DNA of 64,000 nucleotides from an uncultured virus (IMG/VR IMGVR_UViG_3300021400_000484) (IMGVR_UViG_3300021400_000484:1-64000); one strand, 5' to 3'. Positions 22,594 through 59,319 are shown, counted from the first letter of the stretch. A program made the numbers and translations. Notes: a model not told the origin generated them from the letters alone.

Positions 22594-22680
22594 ACGAGGC
22601 TAGGCTGATCCCCGAAAAGAAGATTTATCCACTTCTTGCCTCGTTTTTATATTGGATATAAGTGTTAAGGATAAAACACC
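22594..22680 (+). promoter_or_regulatory. Structured leader RNA motif, copy 1
   Basis: ACGAGG-CTAGG..CCGAAAA-GAAG[ATTTATCCA]CTTC-TTG-CCTCGT; downstream TGGATA and hairpin GTGTT[AAGGATAA]AACAC-C-ATG. Confidence 0.75.
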
Positions 22681-23979
22681 ATGAGAAATTTGAAAACATT
22701 AGAAGAAAGAAGAAAAGAATTAGTAGGAAGAACTTTTGGAAAACTAACTGTAAAAGATGTTCAACCAAATGTGATAGAATCTACTGGTAAACGAGATGGT
22801 TATATTGCTATTTGTTTATGTTCATGTGGTAGAGAAAAAATAGTAAAAATAAATAAACTTTTATCGAATCATACAAAATCATTTGGGATGTGTCCTAGAG
22901 ATTATTTAGTTTATTCAAAAAAAGTATATACAAAATATAAAAAAGAATTTGTTGGGAAAACCTTTGGTAAATTAACTGTTATAGACATAAAACAATGTTA
23001 TACTTCTAACGGGAAGAAACATGGTTATGAGGCAATGTGTATTTGTGAATGTGGAAATACAATTACAGTATCAACTCATGATTTATCAACAGGTCATACT
23101 AAATCTTGTGGATGTTTTAAAGGTCATTATGCGAGTGAAAGTATTATTAAGTGGAGAAATAGTCATCCAGAAGAATCTAATAGTTTTGTCAAAAAATTAA
23201 GAGAATGGCATAAAAATAACACAGAAAAATCATTAGAAATATCTTGTAAAAATTTAAAGAAAGCAGAACAATGGAAAAGAGAACATCCTAAAGAATGTGA
23301 GGCCATACTAAAGAAAGCACAAGAAAAAGCTAAAACATGGAGAATTGATAAACCACAAAAATACAAGGAAGCATTAGAAAAAACAAAAAAATATTGGAAG
23401 AATCATCGTGACGAAATGATAAAAATTAGAAGAAAAATGTTGCTGTCGAGAACGTCGAAAGAAGAAAATGATGTTTTGTGTTTTTTAGAATCTTTAGGAT
23501 ATGATGTAGAAAGACAATTTTATTTAATGAATCATTTTTATGACTTTAGAATTGGAAATTTTTTGATTGAATATCATGGTTCTTCATATCATTATGCCAA
23601 ATATGAATGTTTAAAAAAACCAGAAGTAGGTGAACCTTCAAACCCAAAGCCAATAGAATATCATTTAAATTTAAGAGATATTGCTATACAAAATGGGTTT
23701 AATATAATACAGATATGGGACTATAATTGGATTAATAAAAAAGATTTTGTTCAAAATTTATTAAGAGAACAGCTTTCAGGTAATGCTAACTATAAAGATT
23801 ATTTAGAAGAAGGATTATTGAATAATGATTATGGTTTTATAATAGATGGAGAACAAATTCCACCAAAAGGTATTTGGATATCTACTAAATTTAGAAAAGT
23901 AGTAAAAGAAAGTTTTGAACGTGGAAAGACTCTTGTTTATAATTCAGGATATACTAAAGTATTCAAAGATGAAACGTAA
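22681..23979 (+). CDS. Free-standing homing-endonuclease-like protein
   Basis: Two G(R/K)TFGKLTV...CxCxCG...HTKS repeats, a helical linker, and a C-terminal Vsr/DUF559-like YDFRI..LIEYHG..H motif. Confidence 0.75.
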   Translation: MRNLKTLEERRKELVGRTFGKLTVKDVQPNVIESTGKRDGYIAICLCSCGREKIVKINKLLSNHTKSFGMCPRDYLVYSKKVYTKYKKEFVGKTFGKLTVIDIKQCYTSNGKKHGYEAMCICECGNTITVSTHDLSTGHTKSCGCFKGHYASESIIKWRNSHPEESNSFVKKLREWHKNNTEKSLEISCKNLKKAEQWKREHPKECEAILKKAQEKAKTWRIDKPQKYKEALEKTKKYWKNHRDEMIKIRRKMLLSRTSKEENDVLCFLESLGYDVERQFYLMNHFYDFRIGNFLIEYHGSSYHYAKYECLKKPEVGEPSNPKPIEYHLNLRDIAIQNGFNIIQIWDYNWINKKDFVQNLLREQLSGNANYKDYLEEGLLNNDYGFIIDGEQIPPKGIWISTKFRKVVKESFERGKTLVYNSGYTKVFKDET

Positions 23980-24063
23980 ATTAATTTTTTTGTTGACTTA
24001 TTATTTCTAAAGGTTTACATACGAAAAATGTAGATAGACTTTTTTTATCTTTCTATCTATATT

Positions 24064-24159
24064 TAGGTGGATAGCCCGACGGGGTGAAAAGAAGAATCGT
24101 CAGCTTCCTGCCACCTATCTTATCTCTATAATTCTGACGTGTATTATTGACGGAATACC
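24064..24159 (+). promoter_or_regulatory. Structured leader RNA motif, copy 2
   Basis: TAGGTGG-ATAG..GAAAA-GAAG[AATCGTCAG]CTTC-CTG-CCACCTA; downstream CTGACG and GTATT[ATTGACGG]AATAC-C. Confidence 0.75.
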
Positions 24160-24162
24160 ATT

Positions 24163-24324
24163 ATGACAAATCACCATCGTAAAAGTTTAAATTTGCTTGT
24201 ACAATTTGTTATGAAGATTATGGATATAGTAAATTTTAACAAGGTGAAAGTGTATTCTTTAGGCATGAGATTACATAGACATAACGGTATTTATTTGCTT
24301 TATTCAATGATTGTATTTAATTGA
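24163..24324 (+). CDS. Small 53-aa ORF after leader copy 2 (possible remnant)
   Basis: ATG 4 nt after the motif hairpin, open to TGA at 24324; no recognisable motif. Confidence 0.3.
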   Translation: MTNHHRKSLNLLVQFVMKIMDIVNFNKVKVYSLGMRLHRHNGIYLLYSMIVFN

Positions 24325-24341
24325 ATTGAAGGAGTACTGTT

Positions 24342-27065
24342 ATGATGAAAGAAATCAATCCGTTGGTGTCTTATTGCTTTAGAATGGCAAATACAGAAAG
24401 CAAAACGAGAAGGGAAATTCTTGACGATATAGCAGTAATGCTAGACGAAATAAAAGTGCATGATGGCCTTGAAGCGCTGAGTGTGCAGAATAAAAATGTG
24501 TTCCTAATTCGTAATTGTGAGTTTGAAACATTTAAGCTAGGCAAATTTACAATCAACGAATCAGATATAAAAATGCGTGATAACATTGCATCAAAGATTG
24601 TTAAATTCTTCGATATGGTGCATGTCAGGAATAATTGCTATGTTGAGTTGACGCCTTATGGGATTTCAATTTATGCCAAATTTAGGAATAAGGTTAAGCT
24701 GGACAAAGACGGTGCTGTTTTTGGAAAGCATAATCTTTGCTTCTGCGAGGCTGGTTATAACGAAAACACAAATGATTTCGTAATGGTTGCGCCGACGAAC
24801 ATTCCTTGCTCAACAGGTAGTCTCGTTTTTAAAAGCATCACACATAGCGATTTAAGAGAATTTGTAAATAACGAGAAAAAGAGAATAGTATTTAGTGATA
24901 CAGTTGACGAACCAGTACGACAGATGTCTTTTTGCACGGCAAAAGATTTTATCATTACATGCTATAACGCTTATTTGTTTGCCAAGAATAATGAGATTTC
25001 ATTTGCACTGGAATCAGGTGAAACTATAAACACGACGAATCCTTTTACGAAGCAGAAATTAATTTTCACAGAAGAACAGACACAATGGCTGTTGGAAAGC
25101 AAATCTGATTTTTCAAAGCTGATGATGATTAGCAAAGAAATTTTAAAGCAAAGTAATTTTATATATGATGATGTGACAGAAAAATTTTATGATGAAAACT
25201 GCAATTCTTATACGAGGGATGATATTGCAGAGAAAATCATAACAATGAATAGTTCGGTGAATCTAAACGAATTTAAAAAGAAAATATTGTCTGAACTTAT
25301 ATCATACGAGCGGTATGGAATTAAGAAAAGTGACATTTGCAAGATGCTCATGGAAAAGCGCATGGCGTCTGTGAAAGAATACACATATTCAATCGAAAAG
25401 TTCTGTGCGCGAGTTGGATTTGATCAGTATGAAACAGAAAATATGAAACGTGTGCTTTGCGCTCTTGTGCAAAAGCAGCTAAACCCTGAGACTGTATTTC
25501 AGCAGGTTGTCTATTTCGTAAGTAAACGTCAGGGTGTCGGCAAGACTTTGTTTTGGCAAGCTATTGGTGAAGAATTAAATCCGATAGCCTCTTATCATAA
25601 AGTATCGACTAAAGAACCTATTAGGGATTTGGCTATATATGCAAGGGAAACACCTTTGCTTTTATTCGATGAAGCAAATCTATTAGATGCAAATTTCAAC
25701 AATTTTTTGAATCAATATACATCTGATAAAGGATTTACTTATCGCAAGTTATATACACACGAATCTGTTATGGCTGTAAAGAGGAGTATTCCTATCGTTT
25801 TAGCCAATCATATTTCTGGTGCTGTCTTGTTTGGCGAACAGATAGGTGCGCGTCGTCCGTGGATTTTTGATTTCAGTAGAAACGGAATTGAACGGAATAC
25901 TTTTAAGGCTTTCCATTATAAAAAAGGTGAAGCTAAACATGGCAAGGTGACTGCAAAAAATCTTATTGATGATGCGTGCTTTATTGTTAAACAAAACCTA
26001 GGCAATCCTAATTTTGAATGCGGTGACAATCCGAATCGAAAAGTTTATACAGAATTAAGAAATAAATATTATGTTGATTCTGATTCATTGGATTGTCAGG
26101 TTGAGCTAAGATTGCATGATATTATTGATTATGCGAATAAACATAAAGAACTTTTTTACTGGCATAAAGTGAAGTCTGGTGAAGCATATCCTGCAATATG
26201 CTTGACGCCGCAAAAGTGGGCGCAGCTTCTACATGATGGATATGTTAGTGGAATTGAAACAAAACAAAAAGGCGACAAAGCAGATGACGACGTGTTTAAA
26301 TATAGTTCGTCGAGATTTGCTAGGGTTTCGCTTAGTGTTAAGACAATCATAAATAGAATACTTGTGAAGTTCCCAAATGGATGCAATGATCCAAAGACAA
26401 TGTGTGATGCATCTTGCGGCTATCGTAAATCTGTGAGGGGGATTCCTATTTGGGATTTATTGACTGAATTTAAGAACCAAATAATGAAACCAAAGCCAGA
26501 GAAATTTAATTATTGTGGTTCTTGCTATGATTATGAAAATGATTTCGTATATGTGACTGATGATGGCGAAATCTTTGAACGTGATTCATCTGAAAATAAG
26601 TTTTTTGATGATGATGTCATTGAATATGATTGTTTAAAAGTTAAGAATAGCTGTGATTTAATCAGAAATAAAAAAGAAAAAACAAGTGTTAATGAAAGCA
26701 AGCCTGTTGAACATTCAAAGACAAACGAAAACACAAAGCATGGATTTCATAAGAGAAATTTGTGCAAAAGTAAGAGTATAAATAAGATAAGTATTGCGAA
26801 AACAATGCTATTGTCAGATTCGCAAAGCATGGAATTGTCAAAAGATTCATCTTTTGATAAAGTGTGTAAGGTCGTCGATGCAGTTATTAAGCAGAACGAA
26901 AAGAATCTTATGATACTTCAACAGTTAGAAACGTTGGATAAAGACTTTTCTGATGATCAGCGAGATATACTGCATGATATTTTATTGACTCATGAGGATA
27001 ATTATAGTGGCGCTGTTGTCGGCGTCGATCTGGCTGTTAAGCGTGAAGACGAAATACTATTCTAA
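24342..27065 (+). CDS. VapE-like P-loop NTPase (putative replicative primase-helicase-type protein)
   Basis: SD AAGGAG; Walker A QGVGKT, Walker B LLFDEA, FTYRKLY, IVLAN, GARRPW. Confidence 0.75.
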   Translation: MMKEINPLVSYCFRMANTESKTRREILDDIAVMLDEIKVHDGLEALSVQNKNVFLIRNCEFETFKLGKFTINESDIKMRDNIASKIVKFFDMVHVRNNCYVELTPYGISIYAKFRNKVKLDKDGAVFGKHNLCFCEAGYNENTNDFVMVAPTNIPCSTGSLVFKSITHSDLREFVNNEKKRIVFSDTVDEPVRQMSFCTAKDFIITCYNAYLFAKNNEISFALESGETINTTNPFTKQKLIFTEEQTQWLLESKSDFSKLMMISKEILKQSNFIYDDVTEKFYDENCNSYTRDDIAEKIITMNSSVNLNEFKKKILSELISYERYGIKKSDICKMLMEKRMASVKEYTYSIEKFCARVGFDQYETENMKRVLCALVQKQLNPETVFQQVVYFVSKRQGVGKTLFWQAIGEELNPIASYHKVSTKEPIRDLAIYARETPLLLFDEANLLDANFNNFLNQYTSDKGFTYRKLYTHESVMAVKRSIPIVLANHISGAVLFGEQIGARRPWIFDFSRNGIERNTFKAFHYKKGEAKHGKVTAKNLIDDACFIVKQNLGNPNFECGDNPNRKVYTELRNKYYVDSDSLDCQVELRLHDIIDYANKHKELFYWHKVKSGEAYPAICLTPQKWAQLLHDGYVSGIETKQKGDKADDDVFKYSSSRFARVSLSVKTIINRILVKFPNGCNDPKTMCDASCGYRKSVRGIPIWDLLTEFKNQIMKPKPEKFNYCGSCYDYENDFVYVTDDGEIFERDSSENKFFDDDVIEYDCLKVKNSCDLIRNKKEKTSVNESKPVEHSKTNENTKHGFHKRNLCKSKSINKISIAKTMLLSDSQSMELSKDSSFDKVCKVVDAVIKQNEKNLMILQQLETLDKDFSDDQRDILHDILLTHEDNYSGAVVGVDLAVKREDEILF

Positions 27066-27077
27066 AAAGGATTTAGA

Positions 27078-27347
27078 ATGTCTGACTACGAGAACGAATA
27101 TAACAATATGCTCAACGCATTGAAAAATGGAGAAAATCCATTTAAGCGTTCTGAACAAGTCGAGAAATGGCACGAAGAACTTGACAATGAAAAATTCAAA
27201 TGTGAAATGATTTATCAGGAACGACAGAAGAAAAAAGAATCAGAAGAACGTGATAATCATTTTAAATTGTGGAGCGAACGTGCTGTCGAAGACAATGATC
27301 TTGATTGCATTTTCGGAAAAACGCCATTGCCAAAAAAGAAAAATTGA
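27078..27347 (+). CDS. Hypothetical protein
   Basis: 89-aa ORF with SD AGGA. Confidence 0.6.
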   Translation: MSDYENEYNNMLNALKNGENPFKRSEQVEKWHEELDNEKFKCEMIYQERQKKKESEERDNHFKLWSERAVEDNDLDCIFGKTPLPKKKN

Positions 27348-27424
27348 ATTAGAAAAAACTAGCATTCGCATATCCATGTTGGATAGGCATAACATACACT
27401 TTTTTGCAAAAAAGGAAACAAACC

Positions 27425-28606
27425 ATGCAGATCAATTTCGATGAGAATTGTTCAAATTCAGAAAGAATCGCAAAAGACCTTATTGAAAAGGTTTTGGATT
27501 TTGTGGACAGATCAAAGTCAAAACGCAAAGACACTGTTCGTGAAACACTAAAAAATTATGATGCTGCGCTCATAAATGTATTTGATAAGATGATTGAGCG
27601 CAAGGCGATCATACTTCATTCAGAGAGTGTGAATGGTCATCGTAGAACAATGATTTCGACAGCACCGCGCAATCTCGTTTTTTATTCAGTTAAAAAGATG
27701 ACCAATGAAGTTCCTTCCATAGATGAAATGGAAACAGCATTTAAAGAGACATGGCTAAATAGCACTGTTCAGCCACCAAAGAACTGTGAAAAGTTCTGCG
27801 GTCTTAAAACTGAAAAAGATGCGTTCAAAACGTTTATGGATATGTCTTTTGGTGATTTCTATATCCTTGCTTCTTATTGTTTTTGTGAATATGACAGAAT
27901 TAAACAAAGAAAAGAAAAAGAAGAATTGCTTGCAAAGAAATCAAAAGAGTTGAAGCAGGAAAAAGTCAAAGTTCAATCGCAGCAGAAAGTTGAAGTCAAA
28001 CAAATTGAAAAAGCAGACAAGCCGAAATCTGCAAAAGATGATGCGCTTCAACATATTGCAAAAACATTGCAAAAGAAAAGTACTGACAAAGCACAGACGC
28101 CAAAAGTCGAAGAACAACAGCCTGCCGCCGCCGCACCTGTAACAGAAGATGTCATGGAAACAATCTTGGATGATATGTCTAAATTTAACGAGGATGAGGC
28201 CAAGGGTGTTTCAAAGAATACTGCTTTTGACCAATACCGCAATAAGCGTGAAAAATTGCGTAAATCTGTTGCTGATAAGATTGATGCGCTTCACATGCTT
28301 GCTGACATCAATGCTTATTTAAAATATAGCCTCGTTGAATTAAAGCGCATGTTAGACCCTGCGTTGTTCCGTGGCAACCAATATGCAAATCTCAAGTATT
28401 CAAACAATGAAGTGTTTGAGTGTGGATTTGATAATACAAACATTCTTATGACAAAGATTTGTTTGGATATTGAATCATTAGAAAGAATGAAAACAATTGT
28501 TGACAATGCTCTCGAAGTAAAGTCTCTTTTTGAGAAAGCAAAAGATAATTTTGAGGATGGTGTCACAAAGGAAGAACTTGAGATTGTAAAATCTTTGGCA
28601 AAATAG
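27425..28606 (+). CDS. Hypothetical protein
   Basis: ~393-aa ORF with SD AAGGA, followed by a terminator. Confidence 0.75.
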   Translation: MQINFDENCSNSERIAKDLIEKVLDFVDRSKSKRKDTVRETLKNYDAALINVFDKMIERKAIILHSESVNGHRRTMISTAPRNLVFYSVKKMTNEVPSIDEMETAFKETWLNSTVQPPKNCEKFCGLKTEKDAFKTFMDMSFGDFYILASYCFCEYDRIKQRKEKEELLAKKSKELKQEKVKVQSQQKVEVKQIEKADKPKSAKDDALQHIAKTLQKKSTDKAQTPKVEEQQPAAAAPVTEDVMETILDDMSKFNEDEAKGVSKNTAFDQYRNKREKLRKSVADKIDALHMLADINAYLKYSLVELKRMLDPALFRGNQYANLKYSNNEVFECGFDNTNILMTKICLDIESLERMKTIVDNALEVKSLFEKAKDNFEDGVTKEELEIVKSLAK

Positions 28607-28651
28607 AAAATATATAGTTGCGAAATTATATATATTTGTATTATATAATAA

Positions 28652-28681
28652 AGCCGTGTCGAAAGATGCGGCTTTTTTTTT
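28652..28681 (+). terminator. Intrinsic terminator
   Basis: AAGCCGTGTC-GAAA-GATGCGGCTT plus T-run. Confidence 0.8.
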
Positions 28682-28849
28682 GTATGGGTTTCGGCGATAG
28701 CCTACATTCAAAGGGAAATTGATAATTTTGAAAGCATGGAAGCTAAAAGAACAAAGAAAAGAATTGTTGATTGATGATGCACTTATACACTCATTCTGTT
28801 TCTTTGTATTGTTTGTTATATTAATGATTATAATTGGAGCATTATTAGA

Positions 28850-29515
28850 ATGTATGAAAATCTAAAAAATAATAATGATTGTGATAAAAATTCAAATTTA
28901 ATTTGTTTTAGAAAATCAGTTTTTGCTGGAATTTGCATATCTATAGGCGGAACTGTTTATCTTAGTATTGGCGGCATTGCAGGTGCGGTGCTATTCGCGT
29001 TTGGTCTGCTTGCTGTCGTACATTATCAGCTTCCACTTTATACAGGAAAAGTTGGTTTTATAAAAACAAAGCATGACGCAAAAATGTTGCCGCTTATCTT
29101 ATTAGGAAATATAGTTGGTGCTTTCTTTTTTGCGCTTGCTATGAAATGTGCGAAGCCTGATTTGATACAGGTCGCAAATTCTATTGTAGAAAAACGTGTC
29201 AGTTTAAATTTATTGCAGATGCTTATATTACCAATTGGATGCGGAATAATTATGACTACGGTTGTTAAATTTGCAAGGCAAAAGAAATTTATTCCACTGC
29301 TGATTGGAATACCTGTATTCATTCTTTGTGGTTTTATACACAGCATTGCAGACGCTTTTTATTATTCAATGGCATCTTTAAGCACTTTTACTGATAATGC
29401 ACTATCTATTGTTATAGCATATATCTGTGCAGTAATTGGTAATTTTATTGGTTGTGTATTACCAAACGAATTTAATTTTGGATTCTTTTTGGATGCAGAT
29501 GACAATAGCAAATAG
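28850..29515 (+). CDS. Formate/nitrite transporter (FNT) family channel
   Basis: AGICISIG, LYTG, GNIVG, GFIHSIAD, GNFIG motifs; about six TM helices. Confidence 0.85.
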   Translation: MYENLKNNNDCDKNSNLICFRKSVFAGICISIGGTVYLSIGGIAGAVLFAFGLLAVVHYQLPLYTGKVGFIKTKHDAKMLPLILLGNIVGAFFFALAMKCAKPDLIQVANSIVEKRVSLNLLQMLILPIGCGIIMTTVVKFARQKKFIPLLIGIPVFILCGFIHSIADAFYYSMASLSTFTDNALSIVIAYICAVIGNFIGCVLPNEFNFGFFLDADDNSK

Positions 29516-29554
29516 TCTGCATTATTATATAACCATATTTTTAAGGATATTATT

Positions 29555-30295
29555 ATGTCACCATGCAATTTTAGATTTAGCAAGCCTAAAAATGGTTTAT
29601 TTATTCCAGTTATCGGTGCGATAGCGACAGGCAAATCTAGTTTTACAAAAGCATTAGGTGAAGTTATTAGAGAAGAATCAGGTGAGTGTAGATGCTTTTA
29701 TGAGCCAGCGGCAAAAGAGGATGGCGAGGCTTCCGTGTTTATGCCATTGTTTTATAAAGATCAACAACGTTGGGGATTTACAGTGCAAGTTGAAATGCTG
29801 ACAAAACGTTTAAAGCAGCATAAACTTGCTCAAACATTAAGCCGTGATGGAATTTCGAGTGTTGCTGATTCTGCTATTTGGTCTGATGGTGTTTTCGTTA
29901 ATTTGTTAGAAAAAGACGGAAAGATGACACATGATGAAGCAAATTTGTATTATGATTTGTTCGCAGAAATGACTTGTGGAAATCTGTCTTATCCAACAGC
30001 TATAATATATTTGTCAGTCACACCAGAAAAAGCACTTGAAAGGTTAAACAAGCGCATGACAGAAAAAGCAGGTCGTAAAATGGAAGCAAATATTCCGATT
30101 TCTTATCTTGCAGGCTTAATTGCAGAATATAATGAACTTGTTTCACATCTTAGAAATTTCTGTCATGTTTTGACTGTTGATTGGATGCAGGATAGAACAC
30201 CTATTGAAATAAAAGAATCTGCTAGAGAAATATTGCACACAATAAAAGAATTGAGAAAAAATTGTCCAATAGGTTGTCAAATCGGATTAGAATGA
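29555..30295 (+). CDS. Deoxynucleoside kinase (dAK/dGK family)
   Basis: GAIATGKSS, YEP, FYKDQQRWGFTVQ, IYLSVTPE..LERL..R..E. Confidence 0.9.
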   Translation: MSPCNFRFSKPKNGLFIPVIGAIATGKSSFTKALGEVIREESGECRCFYEPAAKEDGEASVFMPLFYKDQQRWGFTVQVEMLTKRLKQHKLAQTLSRDGISSVADSAIWSDGVFVNLLEKDGKMTHDEANLYYDLFAEMTCGNLSYPTAIIYLSVTPEKALERLNKRMTEKAGRKMEANIPISYLAGLIAEYNELVSHLRNFCHVLTVDWMQDRTPIEIKESAREILHTIKELRKNCPIGCQIGLE

Positions 30296-30351
30296 TATAA
30301 TATATCTATGTTTGATCGTTTCCTACTTACGATTCAAGCATGTAACCACCG

Positions 30352-30391
30352 AATCCCCATCATGATAATTCGTTGTGATGGGGATTTTTTT
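30352..30391 (+). terminator. Intrinsic terminator
   Basis: AATCCCCATCAT...GTGATGGGGATT plus T-run. Confidence 0.8.
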
Positions 30392-30476
30392 ATAATTTAC
30401 ATATTTAAACAAATTTGATATTTAATGATATTAGGATAGGAAATGGATATTCCGATGTTCTTTGATAATATAATGA

Positions 30477-31259
30477 TTGGAGAATGTTATGCCATTAGAT
30501 TTAATATCACTTGTGCAGTGGTTAAAATTCAACGAAAGAGAAACGGATGAATTTTTCTCTGCATGTATGAATAATAGAATCAAAACGAGTTCGAGGGTAA
30601 CAAAAAGAAGTATAAACGAACTAATTGAATTGGATAGGGAATATTTAAAAAAAGCATATAATGCAAAAACGACAACAAAAATAGAAGAAATAAGGTCTGG
30701 TGTTAAGGTTGATTACGTTTCACAAAAATTTTATCTTAAATATATTGACTGGTATATTGTAAAGCCACTTGGAAAAAATGGATTGGATTCATATCGTGTT
30801 TTCTTTCCATTATATCTGCCAAACACAGAAGCACTTGAGCAAATAAAGAATTATCTTGTCGATTTCCGATGTCCGTGTTTTCCTTTTGATTATATTTCGC
30901 TGACAGATATGACAGATGGCAAGGAAACAATTATTTTTATCGGTGCGATGAATGAGGCCGAGCCGATGTGTAAAAGTCCATTGGGTCACAAATGGGAGTG
31001 GAATGTTTTTCGCGAGGATGTTAAAGAAATTTACCTTGCAAAATGCAGCCATTGTGGTATTGAGAGAGAAGCTGTAATTGGTGATAATCGAAATCACCAG
31101 TGGAATGAGAATCACGGATGGCGGTATCTGTCACCTGACAACATTCCATTTACAGACGGCAGCAAGGAAAAAGTCGAAATTTCTTACGAAGATGACGATG
31201 AATCATGTGATCTTTGTGATGCAGATGATTTCGACGAATATGATGACGATGACATCTAA
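30477..31259 (+). CDS. Hypothetical protein with C-terminal zinc ribbon and acidic tail
   Basis: C....GHKW...CSHCG motif. Confidence 0.65.
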   Translation: MENVMPLDLISLVQWLKFNERETDEFFSACMNNRIKTSSRVTKRSINELIELDREYLKKAYNAKTTTKIEEIRSGVKVDYVSQKFYLKYIDWYIVKPLGKNGLDSYRVFFPLYLPNTEALEQIKNYLVDFRCPCFPFDYISLTDMTDGKETIIFIGAMNEAEPMCKSPLGHKWEWNVFREDVKEIYLAKCSHCGIEREAVIGDNRNHQWNENHGWRYLSPDNIPFTDGSKEKVEISYEDDDESCDLCDADDFDEYDDDDI

Positions 31260-31280
31260 CACACAGCACAGAGGAAAACA

Positions 31281-31541
31281 ATGAACGACAGCAAACAACT
31301 TATTACTCGTTACAACACACTGTTAAAAAAACAAAAGGATTCAGAGACAAGGCTTGTTGAGCTACGCACACAGTATAAGGTTGCAAAAGACGAGCTGGAT
31401 GCGCTGACACAGCAATTAAAGCAAGACTTCAATGTGAACAGCATAGATGAGGCGAAAGACTTGCTTGAGCAATACAGACTTGATATTGAAATGGAGTTAG
31501 ATTCGCTTGAGGAAAATGTGAATCAATTGGACGGGATCTGA
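31281..31541 (+). CDS. Small coiled-coil protein (SbcC-associated)
   Basis: SD GAGG; heptad pattern; precedes the SbcC-like ATPase half. Confidence 0.7.
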   Translation: MNDSKQLITRYNTLLKKQKDSETRLVELRTQYKVAKDELDALTQQLKQDFNVNSIDEAKDLLEQYRLDIEMELDSLEENVNQLDGI

Positions 31542-31679
31542 TGCTTGCGTTGCAATCAATCATATTCTGCCTACTTGCAAATGGGGTTGGTTATCAGACA
31601 TATTCGGATGCCAATCACGATTGCTTTTTGGTTTGCAAAAATTTTTTCCAAGTCGAACGCATTTGCGTGGGGAACAGCA

Positions 31680-32336
31680 ATGAATACTAACTACCTAAGA
31701 ACAATACAGGTCAAGCAGCGTATTGCAGAATTGACGAATAAAGTGAGCAATGCGAGGTTTACTGTCGAACAATCTGAAGAAGTTATACGGACAACGACAG
31801 AAGAACTCGAAGCATTAACTCATCAAATAAACATATTGAGCAAGGCACAAAAAGTTGTTCAAGAAATGATTGCAAGTTATTCGCTTGAGCAAATCAAACG
31901 TCTTGAGGTTGTTGTTACTCGGTGTCTCAGAACAGTCTTTTATGATAAGGAATTGTCATTTGAAGTTGAGATTGTTGACAAACGCAATGTAAAGAATGTC
32001 TTTTTTTACATTACAGAGACGGTCGGCGACAAAACATATCGTTTCCCGTTAGATACTTCATCTGTTGCTGGCGGTATTCTCGTTGTCACGTCTTTTATTA
32101 TACAGATTTATTTCATTACATTTTTTAAGTTGCCACAAATTGTTTTCTTGGATGAGGCGTTTTCTCAGGTTTCGGATCAATATATACCATTTTTGAATCA
32201 GCTTCTTTATGGACTTAAAGATGCCTATGGTCTTATTGTTGTTCTGATTACACATGATCCAAGATTTTCTGAACTTGCAGAACGAACTTATGAGGTGGCA
32301 AATGGCGTTTATAGTTTGGTAGAAAGCGATCTATGA
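31680..32336 (+). CDS. SbcC/Rad50-like recombination protein, C-terminal ABC-ATPase half
   Basis: Coiled coil, signature-like VAGG, Walker B VFLDEAFS, H-loop LITHD; no Walker A. Confidence 0.8.
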   Translation: MNTNYLRTIQVKQRIAELTNKVSNARFTVEQSEEVIRTTTEELEALTHQINILSKAQKVVQEMIASYSLEQIKRLEVVVTRCLRTVFYDKELSFEVEIVDKRNVKNVFFYITETVGDKTYRFPLDTSSVAGGILVVTSFIIQIYFITFFKLPQIVFLDEAFSQVSDQYIPFLNQLLYGLKDAYGLIVVLITHDPRFSELAERTYEVANGVYSLVESDL

Positions 32337-32340
32337 TTTT

Positions 32341-32859
32341 GTGGGGGCTGTTGTGCAAAGTCTGTCAGTAGTATGTGTGTCAACAAAAAATAATAATGTG
32401 TTTTCTGATTCTTTAAACTATGAGAATAACAACACAGATAGCGACGAACCTATTGAGCTTGACTTTTCATCTGTCAAGAAATTGGACTTTACACATGCGC
32501 TCATAAACAATGGTGTCGGCGAATACAAGCTGGAAGTCAAAAAGAAAGTGCCAGAATTTAATGAGGTAAAAAATGCGTGGACATTGAGCCATGTTTATTG
32601 GAGACATGACGATCCAGAACCGAATGGTTTTCAAAATCTAAAAGCGACGGTTGAACTTATGATTAGGTCGATGCGTTGCGCTTATAAGCAAAATATAAAT
32701 ATAAAGCATTGCCAGAGCGTTGAACTTTTGATTCCTGAGACGGAAAAAGAGGGTGATAATGTTAAAGCAAGGCTAATCAGCTTCGTTGTTGAAAAATTAA
32801 AGAACGGCAAATACAACGAAGATACATCTGCATATGTAACATTCTGCGATCTTAAATAG
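32341..32859 (+). CDS. Hypothetical protein
   Basis: 172-aa ORF within the operon. Confidence 0.55.
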   Translation: MGAVVQSLSVVCVSTKNNNVFSDSLNYENNNTDSDEPIELDFSSVKKLDFTHALINNGVGEYKLEVKKKVPEFNEVKNAWTLSHVYWRHDDPEPNGFQNLKATVELMIRSMRCAYKQNINIKHCQSVELLIPETEKEGDNVKARLISFVVEKLKNGKYNEDTSAYVTFCDLK

Positions 32860-32869
32860 GAAACACACC

Positions 32870-33901
32870 ATGTCAACTCTCAACAATTTTTTGAAAATAA
32901 AATCAGTAAAGCCAGAATTTATTGTTGTCGGAGATGCACACTTTTGTGACAAAGCTCCGAGTTGTCGCGTCGATAATTATTCTGAGACTTGCTTAAAAAA
33001 ACTTGAATTTGTTTTAGATTATTGCGTTGACAATCAAATTCAAGTTGTCGTTATGGAAGGTGATTTCTTTCATAAGCAGCAAATACCTATTCCATATCTG
33101 ACAAAGATAATACGAACGATCAATGAAAAGAAAACAGAATATAAGATAAAGAATAAAGCGGATTTAGTGATTGCAACAATAATTGGTAATCATGATTTGC
33201 CATTTGAAAATTATAAATTCATTGAAAAGTCACCGTTATATCTTATGTTTGAGGCTGGTGCGCTAACTCATTTTAGATTTATAGAAATAAAATCTGGTCG
33301 CACTTCAATAAATATAAGTGGCTTTGATTATGCAAAAGAAATAGAGAAATCGACAGCAGAAAATGAATGCTGTGTTGCACATTGCTTTTATGGTTTCGAT
33401 TTTGTTAAGGCAATTCCTGATGAAGCTAAAGAAGCCGCAAGAGATCGCATAACAGAAGAACAGGCAGCAGAACTCGGATATAAAGTCTATTTCTTAGGCC
33501 ATGACCATACTTATTATGGTGTGGCAGAAAAAGATGATTATACTGTTGTTCGATGCGGATCTCTTTTGAGAAATTCATCACACGTTCAACAAATCAATAG
33601 ACTTCCATGCTTTCATCATGTTAAATATTATGATGGCAATTATGAATTTGAAAAAGTCATGGTTGCTGCGGAAGCGAGCGAATCTGTTTTTACAAAACAG
33701 TCATTAGAAAAGCCAAAAAAGCCAGAACTTGACGAAACAGTAAAACAGAAAATATCAGATATAATATTTCAGTTGTCAGCAGATATAAAAGAAGAAAATT
33801 CTGTGACTGAAATTCTTGACAATATAATTAAGGAAAAGAATATTGAAACAGAAGTTAGAGACGTTCTGTTAAGATATTTCTCAAGAGAAAATATTATATA
33901 A
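32870..33901 (+). CDS. SbcD/Mre11-like metallophosphoesterase nuclease
   Basis: GDAH, GDFFH, GNHD, AH, LGHDH, GSLLR motifs. Confidence 0.9.
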   Translation: MSTLNNFLKIKSVKPEFIVVGDAHFCDKAPSCRVDNYSETCLKKLEFVLDYCVDNQIQVVVMEGDFFHKQQIPIPYLTKIIRTINEKKTEYKIKNKADLVIATIIGNHDLPFENYKFIEKSPLYLMFEAGALTHFRFIEIKSGRTSINISGFDYAKEIEKSTAENECCVAHCFYGFDFVKAIPDEAKEAARDRITEEQAAELGYKVYFLGHDHTYYGVAEKDDYTVVRCGSLLRNSSHVQQINRLPCFHHVKYYDGNYEFEKVMVAAEASESVFTKQSLEKPKKPELDETVKQKISDIIFQLSADIKEENSVTEILDNIIKEKNIETEVRDVLLRYFSRENII

Positions 33902-33915
33902 TCTTGGAGTTGGCT

Positions 33916-35052
33916 ATGCGCTTAGTTTTTAATCGTGACATTCTTTTGTCAGCACTTGAAAAAATTTGCAGCGTTGCTGGTGGAAAATCAACTTTTGCAA
34001 TTCTTTCAAGTTTTTTGATTGAAGTAAAAGATGGTGTTTGCACTTTTACCGCAACGGATTTGACTGATATTGTACAGTTGGTAGTTGAGGCACAAGTCGA
34101 TGACGATTGTGCTTTTCTGTTGAAAGCAAAAGAAACACTTGAAATTATAAAAGGATTGCCAAAAGGCGAAATAACTTTTGAACTCACTGAATCTGCAATA
34201 AAAATTTCAAGTGGTAAATTTAAGGCCAATATGAATATTGCTGATAGGTCGGAATTTCCTAACGTTGTTATCAGTGATGTTAAGGCAGGATTGAAGTTTA
34301 AAAGTTCTGAATTGAAGAATGCACTTAGCCAAGTCTCGCAATTTGTTTCAACAGATAATTCAAGACCAGAATTTTGCGGCGTGCATCTTGACCATAAATT
34401 TGAAAATAAAGAAGCTGTTGTCACAATGGTTTCAACCGATGGTCATAGGCTCGCAAAAGCAGAATTGTCAGCAGAAGATATGAATGGTCTGGATGCTAAT
34501 TCAGATGGTTATATTCTTTCAACAAAAGCCGTGACGATGCTTTCTAAATTCTTTTCAGAAGAAGAAAGTGTTTTATTCTCATTGGAAAAGAAAAAATCAG
34601 AAGGCAACAAAGCAATATTTAAGGGTGACAAAATTACAGTTGTCAGTTCGTTGATTTCTGGAAGATTTCCTGATTTTTCTGCTGTAATTCCACAAACATT
34701 TAAGAGCTTTGTTGTTGATAAAAATTTGTTGATTGCAAGTCTTAAACGAAGTTCTTTATTTAATCCAAAGCAGCCATTGGTTCGGATTAAGTTGTCTGAG
34801 AACAATGTAAATATTTGCTCGTCTGGACAAATGGGAAGTATGTCAGATGATGTCGAATGCAAATATATAGGTGAAGAAATTATAATTGGTTTAAACGCCA
34901 AATATTTACAGGAATCATTATCAATTGTAGATGATTTGTTTGCCGTCGTCGGAGTTGTTGATCCTGATTCGCCGATTGTGGTCATGTCTGAGACTGATTT
35001 TGATGCAAAGAATTTTGGAACATTATCAGTTATCATGCCGATGATGATTTAG
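33916..35052 (+). CDS. dnaN: DNA polymerase III beta sliding clamp
   Basis: ATDL, EFP, SRPEFCGV, VSTDGHRL, GRFPD, IGLNAKYL, VIMPM C-terminus; SD GGAG. Confidence 0.93.
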   Translation: MRLVFNRDILLSALEKICSVAGGKSTFAILSSFLIEVKDGVCTFTATDLTDIVQLVVEAQVDDDCAFLLKAKETLEIIKGLPKGEITFELTESAIKISSGKFKANMNIADRSEFPNVVISDVKAGLKFKSSELKNALSQVSQFVSTDNSRPEFCGVHLDHKFENKEAVVTMVSTDGHRLAKAELSAEDMNGLDANSDGYILSTKAVTMLSKFFSEEESVLFSLEKKKSEGNKAIFKGDKITVVSSLISGRFPDFSAVIPQTFKSFVVDKNLLIASLKRSSLFNPKQPLVRIKLSENNVNICSSGQMGSMSDDVECKYIGEEIIIGLNAKYLQESLSIVDDLFAVVGVVDPDSPIVVMSETDFDAKNFGTLSVIMPMMI

Positions 35053-35070
35053 AAACGACATTCTATCTAA

Positions 35071-35100
35071 TAAAAGGATGGCTAACTGGTCATCCTTTTA
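35071..35100 (+). terminator. Intrinsic terminator
   Basis: TAAAAGGATGGC-TAACTG-GTCATCCTTTTA. Confidence 0.75.
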
Positions 35101-35217
35101 TTTTATTATTATGGGGAATTGATATGATGCGAGACGCAAACCAACGAGGCTTTAGCCCGTGGTTTAGGCGAACAATAATAATTTGAAAAGAATTTCAAAC
35201 TGTTCTATCTATATAAT

Positions 35218-35317
35218 GTGTGGCTAGGTTGTCGAGAGCCGAAAAGATGTAAAGCCTAACGTCCGCCACACTCTCTTTTCAAGAGATAAATTAGGCTAGT
35301 ATTCAAGGCTAAATACC
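35218..35317 (+). promoter_or_regulatory. Structured leader RNA motif, copy 3 (tnpB leader)
   Basis: GTGTGG-CTAGG..CCGAAAA-GATG[TAAAGCCTAA]CGTC-CG-CCACAC; downstream TTAGGCT and GTATT[CAAGGCTA]AATAC-C-ATG. Confidence 0.75.
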
Positions 35318-36505
35318 ATGTTCAAAGCATTCAAATATAGGCTCTATCCAACTGCACCTCAAGCAGAGAAAATCAACCAAAACATAGGTTGTGCTAGATT
35401 CGTCTATAACCAACTACTGGACGATAGAATCAAGGTCTATAAGGAAACAAAGCAAAAGTCTAAAAAGACTTACTATGACTTGAAGAAAGAACACACATTT
35501 CTTAAAAATGCTGATAGCCGAGCATTACTTCATGCCAGAGAAAACTTGGACGCCGCTTACGATAAGTTTTTTAAAGAGCCAAATACAGGGTTTCCAAAGT
35601 TCAAGTCAAAGCACAAATGCCGATGGAGTTACACCACAGACAATAACAATGATTCTGTTCGGTTTGACGGTCATAGACTGAAAATTCCGAAAATAGGGTA
35701 CATCAATGTCGTTGAGCATAGACAGCATGAAGGACGCATTCTTTCAGCGACAATAAGCAAAGAAAGAAGTGGAGAGTACTATGCCTCTGTTTTATGTGAG
35801 ATAGAACAGCCAAGATCATTACCTATTACAGATAGAGTTGTAGGTATTGATCTAGGATTGCATGATATTGTTGTTTGTTCAGATGGAACTAGAGTTGAAG
35901 CACCAAAGCATTTTCGTAATTCTGAACAGAAATTAGAAAAGAAACAAAGAGAATTTGCTAGAACTCAGAAAGGAGGTAAGGGATATGAGAAAGCTAGAAT
36001 TAAAGTAGCTAAGTGCTATCAGAAAATAAAGAACCAGAGAAATGATTTTCTTCAAAAGTTGTCCACCAAACTTATAAAAGAAAACCAAATTATTTGTTTG
36101 GAAGACCTATTTGTCAAAGGTATGGAACAAAACAAGAAACTAGCTAAATCAGTTACAGATGCTAGTTTTGCTAAATTTGTTTCTATGCTTGAGTACAAGG
36201 CAGAATGGTATGGACGTAAAATAATCAAGATAGACCGTTTTTATCCCAGTACACAGCTTTGTAATGGTTGTGGATGTAAGAACGTGTCTGTTAAAGGCTT
36301 ACGAGGCTTAAAGTTTCGTGAATGGACTTGTCCTGAATGTGGTGAAGTACATGATCGTGACTTAAATGCCGCAATGAACATCCTCAAAGAAGGGTTAAGG
36401 GATTTGAACCTACGGAACGTGGGGGATAGCGAGCTTACTGTGTGTCACACTAACAGGTTTTCTATTAGTGGAGATACGCTTGCACTCGAAGCCTACCGCA
36501 TTTAA
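35318..36505 (+). CDS. tnpB: RNA-guided endonuclease TnpB
   Basis: KAFKYRLYP HTH, GCARFVYN, RuvC GIDLG / CLEDL / HDRDLNAA intact, zinc finger CNGC..CPECG. Confidence 0.95.
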   Translation: MFKAFKYRLYPTAPQAEKINQNIGCARFVYNQLLDDRIKVYKETKQKSKKTYYDLKKEHTFLKNADSRALLHARENLDAAYDKFFKEPNTGFPKFKSKHKCRWSYTTDNNNDSVRFDGHRLKIPKIGYINVVEHRQHEGRILSATISKERSGEYYASVLCEIEQPRSLPITDRVVGIDLGLHDIVVCSDGTRVEAPKHFRNSEQKLEKKQREFARTQKGGKGYEKARIKVAKCYQKIKNQRNDFLQKLSTKLIKENQIICLEDLFVKGMEQNKKLAKSVTDASFAKFVSMLEYKAEWYGRKIIKIDRFYPSTQLCNGCGCKNVSVKGLRGLKFREWTCPECGEVHDRDLNAAMNILKEGLRDLNLRNVGDSELTVCHTNRFSISGDTLALEAYRI

Positions 36506-36566
36506 TGCGCTATGCGAAAGCACACGCGAGGCGGTGGGTAGTTCACATGATTAAGAAAACAAGAAA
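36405..36566 (+). ncRNA. TnpB omegaRNA (reRNA) overlapping the tnpB 3' end; guide from the flank starting at 36547
   Basis: ACCTACGGAACGTGGGGGATAGC...GAAGCCTACCGC...GTAGTTCAC is typical right-end scaffold architecture; 5' boundary approximate. Confidence 0.7.
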
Positions 36567-36683
36567 AGTAGAGAATAAGAAAAGAATTAGCAAACGTTTT
36601 GAATCACAGTGGGTAGTTCATATGATTAAGAAAACAAGAAAAGTAGAGAATAAGAAAAGAATTAGCAAACGTTTTGAATCACA
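36534..36683 (+). repeat. 75-bp tandem duplication spanning the IS right end and the start of the flanking gene
   Basis: 36534-36608 vs 36609-36683, one mismatch (TTCAC/TTCAT). Confidence 0.95.
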
Positions 36684-37479: not shown

Positions 37480-37920
37480 TTAATTTCCAAAAATACTAGC
37501 AACATGCTTAAAATCGAAAGCTAGTTCTAGTTGATCATATTCTTTGTATGGTCGCAGAACTAGCTTTTTTGTTGTCGGGCTGTCTTCAAAAAATACGATA
37601 CTCACACACATTTCTATGAATTGTTCGATTGTTAAATTCTCATTATATTCAGAAACAATTCTGATTGTTTCATTCTGTGATTCCAAATAATCAGAAAATT
37701 TTTTTAGAATTGTGCGTACTGAATTTATATCGTTTGATGTTGTAATTACCAAAGGACAACCGCCCATTAGATTATAAACAAAAGATGTTTTTTCTTTTGC
37801 CATCATCTTTTGCATATTGCGTGTGGCTTTTTCTAAAGCGTTTATGCTTTTTAGCAATTTTGAATCAATTTCTTTTTTGTCGTTTTTTGCCATGGCTTCA
37901 CCAAAATAACGTTCGCACAT
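37480..37920 (-). CDS. Hypothetical protein
   Basis: 146-aa ORF convergent with the previous gene. Confidence 0.6.
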   Translation of the reverse strand: MCERYFGEAMAKNDKKEIDSKLLKSINALEKATRNMQKMMAKEKTSFVYNLMGGCPLVITTSNDINSVRTILKKFSDYLESQNETIRIVSEYNENLTIEQFIEMCVSIVFFEDSPTTKKLVLRPYKEYDQLELAFDFKHVASIFGN

Positions 37921-42553: not shown

Positions 42554-42580
42554 TATCATGTACCTAGGAATTTGGCTTTT

Positions 42581-43040: not shown

Positions 43041-43042
43041 TA

Positions 43043-43129
43043 GGGCGTGTAGTTTAATATGGTAAAACAACTCTCGCGAGGAATATAGAAATATATTCGG
43101 AGAAATAGGTTCGAGTCCTGTCACGTCCA
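43043..43129 (+). ncRNA. tRNA-like RNA lacking an anticodon (GAAA-capped arm)
   Basis: GGGCGTG/CACGTCC-A acceptor, D arm, ATAGG-TTCGAGT-CCTGT; centre GAATATA-GAAA-TATATTC. Confidence 0.72.
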
Positions 43130-57329: not shown

Positions 57330-57388
57330 TTCTGTTAAATAAAACAAACTATAAATTTTATTTAACAAAACAACCAAAAGCCTCAAAA

Positions 57389-59236
57389 TTAAATTTTGAG
57401 GCTTTTATTTTTCCAAATCCATCTTTTGTTTCCGCATCTAAAAACTTTATAAAATCCAAGAGAGTGCATTATAAAGTCTTCTTTTGATGAGGCGTTTTCG
57501 CAAATAGCTTTTTTGTATAAATCTGGGTATTTATATTTTAAATGTTTAGGTTGACATTGTTGTCTTGTATAAAACATATTGTCTTTAGCCCAATAATAAG
57601 GCAAGTCTGTTATTGATTCAAAAAAGAAACCTAGTTTTTTGTAGACTTCACCAGTGAAGTAATCACAGTCGCTGTAAGTTATTATGCTTTCAGGGGTAAA
57701 TTCCTTTTCAAAAGCAGAAAATATTTTTTCTGCTCCGCCAATAACTGAGTAACCAAACTTTACGCAATATCTTGATAAATCCCATTCAACCTCTTTTTGT
57801 TTACCAAATTTAGGTTTTGAAAAAGTCATAACAGAAATTAAGTCATCATTATAAAACAGCCCATAAGCAATAAGATTTCCGCTAGATTTACCTTTTAAAT
57901 GATATTTATCACAGAATTTGTTCGCATCTTTCAAATCTATTTTTTTTACTGTCGTTTTTCTTCCATATATTATTGTTTTTTGAATAAATAAATCTTTAAG
58001 AAATTGTTTAATTTTTTCTTTGTTTTCTATCCAGTCTTTGTCGAATATTGATATTAATCTTATGTTCTGTCGCTCACAAATTAAGTATTTATTTAAATTA
58101 TGTTCTTTTGTTTGCGTGAATCGTTCGCCATGCCATAAACTACCATTATATTCTATTGCAATATTTTTATCTTTACAGAATATGTCTAATTCGAGAAACC
58201 GATTAGATTTTTCACTTTTTATGGTTGTACGATTCCTTTTTTCTGCATTTGGATAAAATAACTTTATATAATTATAAATGGCATCTTCACTTGCAGATAT
58301 ACTTTGCTTGCAGTGTGGACATTTACAGGCAGGTTCCCCAGTCGAAATAACGATATGATTTCCAACATACTGGTTGTATATTCCATGTTTTTGACAATAA
58401 AAATCTAAATATTCAGTTGATGATATTTCTGATTTTTTAGCTCTTTCCTTATCATATTCATGTGCTAATTCATTTATAAACCAATCTGGATAGCAAGGAC
58501 GGTTTTTTATTATTGTTTTATTTCTTGATATTTTTTTATTTATTCTTCCACACACAGGACATCCCTGATTAGGTTTCCCAGTGGAAATGTAAATATGTGC
58601 ATCGACTCTTTGTTTATAATTTCCATGAATGTGACATTTAAATTCTATTTTATCAGACCAATTAAGTTCTTTAGAAATAGCTTTCTGTTTGTCATTATCA
58701 TTTGCTATATCATTTATAAACCATTGGGGAAATTTCCTTTTTTGCTTGTTTTTTTCTTTAACAGATTGTTTTTGTTTTATTATACCACATAGAGGACAAC
58801 CTTGCTTTTTAGATGATGTTTTGAAATCGATATGGTCTGCAACTATTTGGTTATAAACGCCATGTTCTTTACAAAAGAATTCTATTCTTTCATTATATTT
58901 TAAATCCTTATTTATTGCTTTCTGTTTGTTTTCTTCTGAATAGATTTCATCTATAAACCATTTCGGATATTCAGGTCTTTTTGATTTCTTTGTTTCTGAA
59001 AATTTAGCTTTTCTTTTAATTTCACTACATAGCTGACAACCTTTACGTTTTTCACCTGTGCTAAGTTTTATATGATCTGAAATTCTCTGTGTATAACATC
59101 CATGCTCTTTGCAGAAAAAATCTACAACATCCGAACTTTTTAGCTCATTATTCTTTGCTTTTTGTTTATCTTCTTCGTGAGCTAGTTCATCAATAAACCA
59201 GTCAGGAAATGCAGTTCTGTTTTTGATGTTTTTCAT
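57389..59236 (-). CDS. Free-standing homing-endonuclease-like protein with four zinc-ribbon repeats
   Basis: 4x PxWFIxE...FxCxxHGxYxQ...CxxC, then ELDIFC..IAIEYNGSLWH nuclease motif and a C-terminal LSRYC..GGA..TYSD domain. Confidence 0.8.
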   Translation of the reverse strand: MKNIKNRTAFPDWFIDELAHEEDKQKAKNNELKSSDVVDFFCKEHGCYTQRISDHIKLSTGEKRKGCQLCSEIKRKAKFSETKKSKRPEYPKWFIDEIYSEENKQKAINKDLKYNERIEFFCKEHGVYNQIVADHIDFKTSSKKQGCPLCGIIKQKQSVKEKNKQKRKFPQWFINDIANDNDKQKAISKELNWSDKIEFKCHIHGNYKQRVDAHIYISTGKPNQGCPVCGRINKKISRNKTIIKNRPCYPDWFINELAHEYDKERAKKSEISSTEYLDFYCQKHGIYNQYVGNHIVISTGEPACKCPHCKQSISASEDAIYNYIKLFYPNAEKRNRTTIKSEKSNRFLELDIFCKDKNIAIEYNGSLWHGERFTQTKEHNLNKYLICERQNIRLISIFDKDWIENKEKIKQFLKDLFIQKTIIYGRKTTVKKIDLKDANKFCDKYHLKGKSSGNLIAYGLFYNDDLISVMTFSKPKFGKQKEVEWDLSRYCVKFGYSVIGGAEKIFSAFEKEFTPESIITYSDCDYFTGEVYKKLGFFFESITDLPYYWAKDNMFYTRQQCQPKHLKYKYPDLYKKAICENASSKEDFIMHSLGFYKVFRCGNKRWIWKNKSLKI

Positions 59237-59319
59237 GGTGCTTTACCTTTAACACATACCTGAATTTTAGAGGGCAGGGAAGCAGGTAAATCTTCCTTTT
59301 CGGTTGGCCGACCTAGCCC
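59237..59319 (-). promoter_or_regulatory. Structured leader RNA motif, copy 4
   Basis: GGG-CTAGG..CCGAAAAG-GAAG[ATTTACCTG]CTTC-CCTG-CCC; downstream CAGGTA and GTGTT[AAAGGTAA]AGCAC-C-ATG. Confidence 0.75.

Follow-up and report, generated by a model that had tools for sequence, protein, structure and literature searches.

Why do several unrelated genes of one virus begin with the same RNA architecture, in which a loop that differs from copy to copy is complementary to two places just ahead of the start codon? The question is raised by a 64,000-nucleotide (nt) stretch of an uncultured virus (IMGVR_UViG_3300021400_000484:1-64000, hereafter the window), which carries four copies of a structured leader (c1 to c4). 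An initial annotation, made from the sequence alone, had read them as a portable translational switch with two mutually exclusive pairings that throttles toxic nucleases. The analysis below identifies the leaders as members of the Rfam family int-alpA (RF02996), finds the two-site design again among homologs, and argues for translational control by alternative pairing of a single loop.

Architecture of the four leaders

The window belongs to a gut phage and is contained in a complete virus record of 77,744 bp with inverted terminal repeats, and exactly four RF02996 matches were found genome-wide. All four places were read directly, and the architecture described by the initial annotation was confirmed at each of them (Table 1). 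In every copy, helix P1 is followed by a (C/A)TAG joiner, helix P2, GAAAA, helix P3 with a loop of 9-10 nt, the closing strand P1', a linker of 8-19 nt and a short site A. The 3' part consists of a 5-bp hairpin (H4) whose 8-nt loop holds a second site, B, then C (CATT in c2) and ATG; the start codon lies 1 nt after H4 in c1, c3 and c4 and 4 nt after it in c2. Compensated changes between copies, also noted at the outset, were verified by direct reading in the P3 stem (GAAG/CTTC vs GATG/CGTC) and in the H4 stem (GTGTT/AACAC vs GTATT/AATAC vs GTGTT/AGCAC). Single-sequence folding recovered P1, P3 and H4 in c1, c3 and c4, not in c2.

The P3 loop differs in each copy and is complementary to both site A and the loop of H4, as had been proposed, and this holds for its own leader only. 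The complementarity to sites A and B extends over 6 and 7 nt in c1, 6 and 5 nt in c2, 7 and 5 nt in c3, and 6 and 7 nt in c4. When the four copies were cross-compared, no loop had two such sites in the leader of another copy; the sole long cross match, between the c1 loop and the c3 leader, was a single A/T-rich site of 7 nt. In mononucleotide shuffles of the downstream stretch, two sites of the observed lengths arose in 81, 34, 18 and 22 of 20,000 trials for c1 to c4, respectively. Calculated duplex energies at sites A and B were -6.1 and -7.6 kcal/mol in c1, -7.9 and -7.0 in c2, -9.3 and -7.8 in c3, and -7.3 and -7.5 in c4. Site B overlaps the predicted Shine-Dalgarno (SD) sequence by 4, 2, 4 and 5 nt in c1 to c4, respectively.

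Table 1. Coordinates of the leaders, their parts and the genes that they precede in the window.
Feature	Position	Strand	Details
Promoter-like site ahead of c1	22558..22586	+	TTGACA, 17 nt, CATAGT; ends 6 nt before P1
Leader c1	22593..22683	+	P1 22593-22600 with 22638-44; P2 22603-13; P3 22619-35
c1 P3 loop and sites	22623..22631	+	Site A 22653-22658; site B 22669-22675 inside the loop of H4 (22662-22679)
432-aa gene led by c1	22681..23979	+	PHROGs HNH/homing endonuclease-like: phrog_374, 3.4e-19, residues 8-86
Leader c2	24064..24165	+	P1 24064-70 with 24111-17; P2 24074-85; P3 24091-24107, loop 24095-24103
c2 sites		+	Site A 24134-39; H4 24141-58 with site B 24148-53; ATG 24163
25-codon open reading frame	24163..24240	+	Directly after leader c2
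907-aa VapE-like gene	24342-27065	+	Pfam VapE-like_dom, 2.1e-07; starts 100 nt past the end of the 25-codon frame
Leader c3	35217..35320	+	P1 35218-24 with 35265-71; P2 35227-40; P3 35246-63, loop 35250-59
c3 sites		+	Linker with additional hairpin; site A 35291-97; H4 35299-35316, site B 35306-10; ATG 35318
tnpB led by c3	35318..36505	+	Pfam OrfB_IS605 9.2e-29, Cas12f1-like_TNB 2.1e-25, HTH_OrfB_IS605 1.3e-18
Leader c4	59234..59323	-	P1 59316-19 with 59272-75; P2 59302-13; P3 59278-96, loop 59283-91
c4 sites		-	Site A 59257-62; H4 59238-55 with site B 59242-48; ATG 59236-59234
615-aa gene led by c4	57389..59236	-	PHROGs HNH/homing endonuclease: phrog_559 3.7e-88, phrog_3339 8.6e-68

Assignment to the int-alpA family

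The initial annotation could not assign the leaders to a named family; the Rfam scan gives int-alpA for all four copies. With a gathering score of 35.8 bits, c2 lies over the cut-off (40.7 bits), c3 just under it (35.6 bits) and c4 under it (30.1 bits), with E-values in the genome of 3.4e-7 for c3 and 9.2e-6 for c4. Copy c1 equals the cut-off exactly (35.8 bits); it was counted as over it in the scan of the genome record and was unlisted in the whole-window gathering scan. Against model R1, of which it is itself a training sequence, c1 scored 49.7 bits. The four leaders are new members of this catalogued family.

RF02996 is an orphan motif of Rfam type 'Gene; sRNA' (small RNA). Its consensus carries a U-rich stretch 3' of P1' and has at its end AAGGG, a complement of CCUU in its own P3 loop. 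The phage and prophage setting of the family is shared by the window virus, by the homologs in viral contigs, and by homologs in cultured phages of Salmonella, Enterobacter, Klebsiella, Vibrio, Edwardsiella and Pantoea. Enterobacter phage Tyrion and Edwardsiella phage GF-2 are among these cultured carriers. In BIS08P22, a cultured P22-like phage of Salmonella (locus L239, record positions 19309-19356), the int-alpA core is flanked by a KilA-N gene and a hypothetical gene of 89 aa and precedes the terminase genes; this phage is a possible experimental model.

The motif reportedly comes from the 2017 survey of 224 candidate RNAs by Weinberg et al. The name int-alpA is absent from the main text of PMC5737381, whose supplement may already show a pseudoknot. 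Elsewhere in the literature searched, it occurs only as a gene order or a table entry, and no functional study was found. A search under homing endonuclease, pseudoknot and Shine-Dalgarno returned no paper on int-alpA RNA, and no literature was found that links DUF1376 with an RNA motif. Since no characterising work was found, we treat int-alpA as catalogued but functionally unexplained. The novelty claimed at the outset was to fall with a strong match to a characterised family: the Rfam match exists, but no characterisation of the family turned up in the literature searched. As far as the literature was searched, the mechanistic two-site reading appears to be new, the family itself being catalogued.

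Two-site design across homologs

Homologs were collected with an exact pattern of junction nucleotides that contained no letters of the loop or of the sites, and at least 120 stretches were found in viral contigs. Removal of near-duplicates left 107 listed sequences with 81 distinct P3 loops; 99 of the sequences had a well-formed P3. RF02996 was found in 41 of the 48 whole viral records behind the listed pattern matches (E <= 0.01), 28 of them over the cut-off; the matching records mostly held one copy, and three held two.

A homolog was scored as two-sited if, within 75 nt downstream, its loop had a best complementary match of 5 nt or more and another match, not overlapping the first, of 4 nt or more. 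This was the case in 88 of the 99 listed homologs, compared to 12.4% of 7,518 mismatched pairs of loop and leader. At stricter lengths of at least 6 and at least 5 nt, the values were 55 of 99 and 1.0%, respectively. The covariation of loop and sites, on which the initial annotation had staked its proposal, is therefore present among homologs. It extends to fine detail in the DUF1376 subgroup, where single-base differences between loops are mirrored in both sites. The same two-site design was found at eight bacterial loci that had been reached through the downstream protein and not through the RNA pattern. The titles of these eight records name several phyla; since seven of the eight are metagenome bins, the taxon labels are unreliable.

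Helix covariation was assessed in an alignment of 69 pattern-selected sequences, with the structure supplied from the Rfam model. Paired cells made up 84.0% compared to 65.0% in shuffles, both sides had changed in 11 of 15 base pairs, and the covariation score was 0.442; shuffles gave 0.132, and sliding the partners gave 0.104 at most. This supports a three-way junction of P1, P2 and P3 with the conserved joiners CUAG, CGAAAAG and CCUG. The junction nucleotides are nearly invariant, and the helices and loops are all variable. In the window, the joiners deviate in c2 (AUAG and UGAAAAG) and in c3 (CCG instead of CCUG).

These data bear on whether the repeated words act as DNA, as operator half-sites or recombination sites, and not through RNA pairing. 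Sites A and B are direct copies of a word of 5-7 bp, of which the P3 loop is an inverted copy, as such DNA repeats would be. However, the word is a different one in nearly every homolog (the 107 listed sequences carry 81 distinct loops), the surrounding scaffold is conserved as RNA structure with compensatory changes and G-U pairs, and the element is invariably on the coding strand, immediately ahead of a start codon. Four protein specificities would moreover be needed in one phage. We consider this explanation barely credible.

Geometry of the two sites and the ribosome-binding position

The registers of the two pairings were compared in 82 listed homologs. Pairing with site A runs flush to the loop's 3' end in 73 of them and leaves 2-3 nt unpaired at the 5' side of the loop in 65. 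This register argues for a classical H-type pseudoknot stacked on P3, and therefore at least the site A pairing would be intramolecular. The register of site B is usually shifted by one nucleotide (42/82). Site A is the longer of the two in 43 homologs and the shorter in 16, with equal lengths in 23, and the mean duplex energies are -7.7 kcal/mol for A and -7.2 kcal/mol for B. Most linkers from P1' to site A have 4-14 nt, and most gaps between the two sites 6-10 nt.

The initial annotation had placed the second site on the ribosome-binding position, and the homologs bear this out beyond the window: site B overlaps the best predicted duplex of SD and anti-SD in 73 of 82 (by at least 3 nt in 54), and in 77 of 82 no more than 1-12 nt separate the 3' end of site B from the start codon.

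Promoter-like sequences and the 5' end

The motif TATCTATA occurs 10-21 nt ahead of P1 in c1, c2 and c3. Genome-wide (77.7 kb) it has 12 occurrences on the + strand and 2 on the - strand, at window positions that include 10881, 22074, 22572, 24054, 28938, 35206, 37924, 40711, 59411 and 61180. It is probably part of a phage promoter. In the region of c1, promoter-like sites were not more numerous than expected by chance. Among the listed homologs, 63 of 99 had a -10-like hexamer whose end lies 2-8 nt upstream of the base taken as the first of P1, compared to 13 of 99 at control offsets. Because this hexamer and TATCTATA sit just ahead of P1, the leader would form the 5' end of its own transcript, and the arrangement fits a cassette of promoter, leader and gene.

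A 5' position would also suit a structure that raises expression, the pseudoknot and the 5' junction opening or positioning the ribosome-binding hairpin or protecting the 5' end, in the way of the long-range repZ pseudoknot of IncI-alpha plasmids. The SD sequence lies partly in the H4 stem in many homologs, and invasion of the H4 loop could open that stem. The same overlap of site B with the SD sequence speaks against activation, since a loop paired there would stand in the way of the ribosome. Nor is the site preceded by a leader peptide, and no match of the PK-repZ type was obtained in the four regions at E-values up to 10. An activating or stabilising role thus appears improbable.

P2 loops and possible pairing between leaders

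A 4-nt palindrome lies inside the loop in 26 of the 42 distinct P2 loops (listed homologs, L008-L127), compared to 10.0 +/- 2.5 in shuffled loops; none of 5,000 shuffles reached 26. Nine different palindromes occur. The P3 loops are depleted in such palindromes (7 of the 81 listed, compared to 18.7 +/- 3.4 in shuffles). In the window, c1 carries GATC (22603-22613), c3 TCGA (35227-35240) and c4 GGCC (59302-59313), and c2 has none. The palindromes may allow like-with-like dimerisation of leader RNAs. Two leaders joined through P2 would contribute one P3 loop each, enough to occupy sites A and B together.

The main rival explanation builds on this point. It holds that a short P1-P3 RNA, or a second leader joined through P2, acts in trans: the incoming P3 loop fills the site left free, A and B are both covered, and translation stops at high transcript levels. 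One loop with two near-identical target sites would be accounted for, as would the enrichment of palindromes in P2 with their depletion in P3, and the differing palindromes of the window copies. The sRNA type given by Rfam, the U-rich stretch after P1' in the consensus, and the presence in one genome of different loops that each have their own sites also agree with it. Nevertheless, the flush register of site A and the narrow range of linker lengths point to intramolecular pairing, a kiss of 4 bp is weak, and different loops in one genome are also expected of old, diverged copies. A separate short RNA would lack an evident 3' end: only 20 of 87 listed homologs have a run of at least 4 T in the linker from P1' to site A, and the scan found no terminator-like site beside c1 or c2. 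A look for RNA sequencing runs that contain this DNA found none. P1 with a T-run was for the same reasons rejected as a general terminator.

Further targets in trans were also sought in the genome (77.7 kb). Tandem loop-complementary sites were at chance level, each loop having between 1 and about 17 additional ones on a strand, and they lend the trans model nothing. We regard control in trans or by dimers as possible but unlikely. Just 5' of leader c3, a hairpin-like stretch (window 35147-35169) holds complements of 8 and 6 nt to the c3 P3 loop; chance matches occur elsewhere too.

A more specific form of this idea is a self-addressed sensor of RNA dosage, in which the P3 loop, its two sites and the self-complementary P2 loop would make up a private address. 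At low transcript levels, the resident P3 loop would rest on the decoy A and the gene would be translated. At high levels, for instance as phage DNA copies multiply, leaders or their fragments would pair via the P2 palindromes, and the P3 loop of the partner would cover the SD sequence and silence only that cassette. If true, this would be a protein-free negative feedback, portable with any mobile gene. We consider it quite unlikely as a whole.

Proposed mechanism

Translational control in cis by alternative pairing of the P3 loop, most likely limiting protein output, is the reading that we prefer, with a probability of roughly 0.55. Masking of the ribosome-binding site by the P3 loop is the simplest reading of the positions. 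We infer further that pairing at B represses, that A is a decoy, and that the action is in cis. Each cassette would consist of its own promoter, an int-alpA 5' leader and a gene. The conserved three-way junction would present the variable P3 loop. On site A, the loop would form the H-type pseudoknot stacked on P3, and the flush register is the reason for taking site A as the resident partner or decoy. On site B, which in the window phage lies in the loop of H4, it would hide the SD sequence. Because the two pairings are nearly equal in energy and mutually exclusive, translation would be initiated at a low rate peculiar to each cassette, governed by the proportion of time for which the loop occupies site B.

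Several observations weigh against this reading. A plain hairpin at the ribosome-binding site would throttle translation equally well, and a throttle leaves the conserved junction nucleotides, the P2 palindromes and the need for two sites unexplained. One loop cannot fill two sites at once, and a second molecule in trans fits equally. The listed homologs are a biased sample of the int-alpA family, selected by an exact pattern among the matches listed. The folding z-scores of the four copies (-1.0, -0.4, -2.3 and +0.7) are unremarkable and give weak support. A hairpin with site B in its loop appeared in 53 of 87 local folds of listed homologs; the loop-loop kiss is consequently not universal and applies to the window phage and many relatives. 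Finally, the balance of A and B did not differ significantly between cassettes of the nuclease type and those of the DUF1376 type (Mann-Whitney p = 0.13), and the idea of a stronger site B in nuclease cassettes was rejected.

Genes led by int-alpA and portability of the leader

Three of the window copies had been described as leading unrelated DNA nucleases. For c3 this stands, its gene being tnpB by Pfam; the c1- and c4-led proteins are named as HNH or homing endonucleases by PHROGs only. No Pfam domain over the cut-off was found in these two proteins of 432 and 615 aa, and neither predicted nuclease has a relative of solved structure. They share a short IEY(H/N)GS region (BLASTP E 3e-4) and otherwise nothing. 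The 615-aa putative nuclease has four N-terminal repeats rich in Cys and His. Behind leader c2, the 25-codon frame with the 100-nt gap (24163-24341) could be a leader peptide or the remnant of a lost gene.

The downstream survey covered 85 open reading frames; of the 86 listed homologs with a frame of 40 codons or more, L041 was set aside, being nearly identical to the window's c4. According to family assignment, 25 encode DUF1376 proteins, 10 are nuclease-like, 11 belong to other families and 39 to no family. The nuclease-like set comprises HNH, HNH_3, NUMOD, T5orf172 and DUF559, with two members that have weak GIY-YIG matches only. The 11 others are an antirepressor, Rha, an integrase, Dam, a helicase, two HTH_36, two tail tube proteins, DUF551 and DUF6291. 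As only 10 of 85 frames are nuclease-like, the leader is not nuclease-specific, and the proposal that it throttles toxic nucleases was too narrow. DUF1376 was also rejected as an obligate partner: the leader was found at 8 of 80 bacterial DUF1376 loci, directly upstream at 7.

Such a mixture of genes also bears on the idea that the junction is a sensor, binding a protein or a small ligand that decides whether the loop sits on A or B, in the manner of a riboswitch expression platform. This would account for a junction that is near-invariant while helices and loops vary, which the throttle model leaves unexplained. However, the downstream genes have no common metabolic theme, whereas a riboswitch is expected to serve one pathway or ligand; no candidate partner was identified, and the junction may merely orient P3 for the pseudoknot. 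A sensing role seems to us rather doubtful.

The TnpB loci support the earlier claim that the leader is portable. A block that contains the leader and tnpB, from about 35119-35128 to the stop codon (36505), is common to the window and four other TnpB loci in differing phage contexts. It starts about 100 nt before P1 and shows 75-80% DNA identity. As the shared block spans the leader up to the tnpB stop codon, the leader travels with the gene. It was found at 5 of 80 viral TnpB loci, all with at least 78% identity to the window TnpB; distant viral TnpB genes (at most 56% identity) have ordinary left-end hairpins of insertion sequences in its place. A left-end structure of IS200/IS605 elements, general to the TnpB family, was consequently rejected as the identity of the leader.

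Fragmentary contigs of four related gut runs contained no clean junction that skips a cassette over 21500-37600. Relatives of the c4-led nuclease and of the primase were found in viral contigs as identical copies only, and no deposited phage was a near match to the window virus. Elsewhere in the window, five transfer RNA (tRNA) genes are clustered on the + strand (41499-43129); two of them carry long insertions relative to the tRNA model (11 nt for 6 positions and 31 nt for 17).

Significance and comparison with known systems

The analysis turns an 'sRNA' that had been an orphan in Rfam for years into a hypothesis testable by mutation: int-alpA as a portable 5' leader in which one loop selects either a decoy or the ribosome-binding site. 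This leader fronts selfish nucleases (HNH-type and one TnpB clade), replication-module genes of the DUF1376 type, antirepressors and small accessory cassettes. If confirmed, the hypothesis would account for the way in which phage cassettes, as they move horizontally, carry along a limiter of their expression, and it would offer naturally orthogonal modules of translational control to synthetic biology. Of separate interest, one TnpB clade has acquired a leader that is otherwise borne by phage cassettes.

With int-alpA as catalogued, the window leaders share the three-way junction, the conserved joiners and the phage or prophage setting. The family is typed as an sRNA, whereas the window copies are 5' leaders before a start codon with two loop-complementary sites; they are also A/T-rich, carry the SD sequence in the loop of an extra hairpin, and include two copies (c3 and c4) under the cut-off.

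A parallel is offered by the c4 RNA of phages P1 and P7 and the CI RNA of P4. These are small structured RNAs co-transcribed with their own targets, with loops complementary to two sites, one of them at the ribosome-binding site. Loop and targets covary between related elements; there are two loops (a' and b') and two targets, the RNA is released by RNase P, and it acts in trans. The window leaders resemble them in being structured RNAs with their own targets, in loop-site complementarity that includes the ribosome-binding site, and in covariation. They differ in that c4 RNA has two loops for two different targets, and each window leader has one loop for two near-identical targets. Identity with the C4 antisense RNA (RF01695; P1 c4 and P4 CI) was rejected: no C4 match was found in the four regions at E-values up to 10, and phage P4, as a positive control, gave C4 with 74.9 bits and no int-alpA match.

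The repZ pseudoknot of IncI-alpha and IncB plasmids is an activator of translation; it depends on a leader peptide being translated, and a separate antisense RNA blocks it. As in the window leaders, the loop of a distal hairpin pairs with a short sequence by the SD sequence, there of a replication gene. Unlike repZ, the window leaders show no sign of activation, leader peptide or antisense RNA.

RNA structures that hide the ribosome-binding site keep translation low in the phage homing endonuclease genes I-TevI, mobE of Aeh1 and segB of T4, according to PMC3014915. The likeness is that structured RNA lies where translation begins, there in nuclease genes that are free-standing or intron-borne. 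Those structures are simple local hairpins, whose effect depends on the promoter of the transcript. In int-alpA, by contrast, a conserved distal junction would supply the masking strand, a second site would serve as decoy, and most members lead genes other than nucleases.

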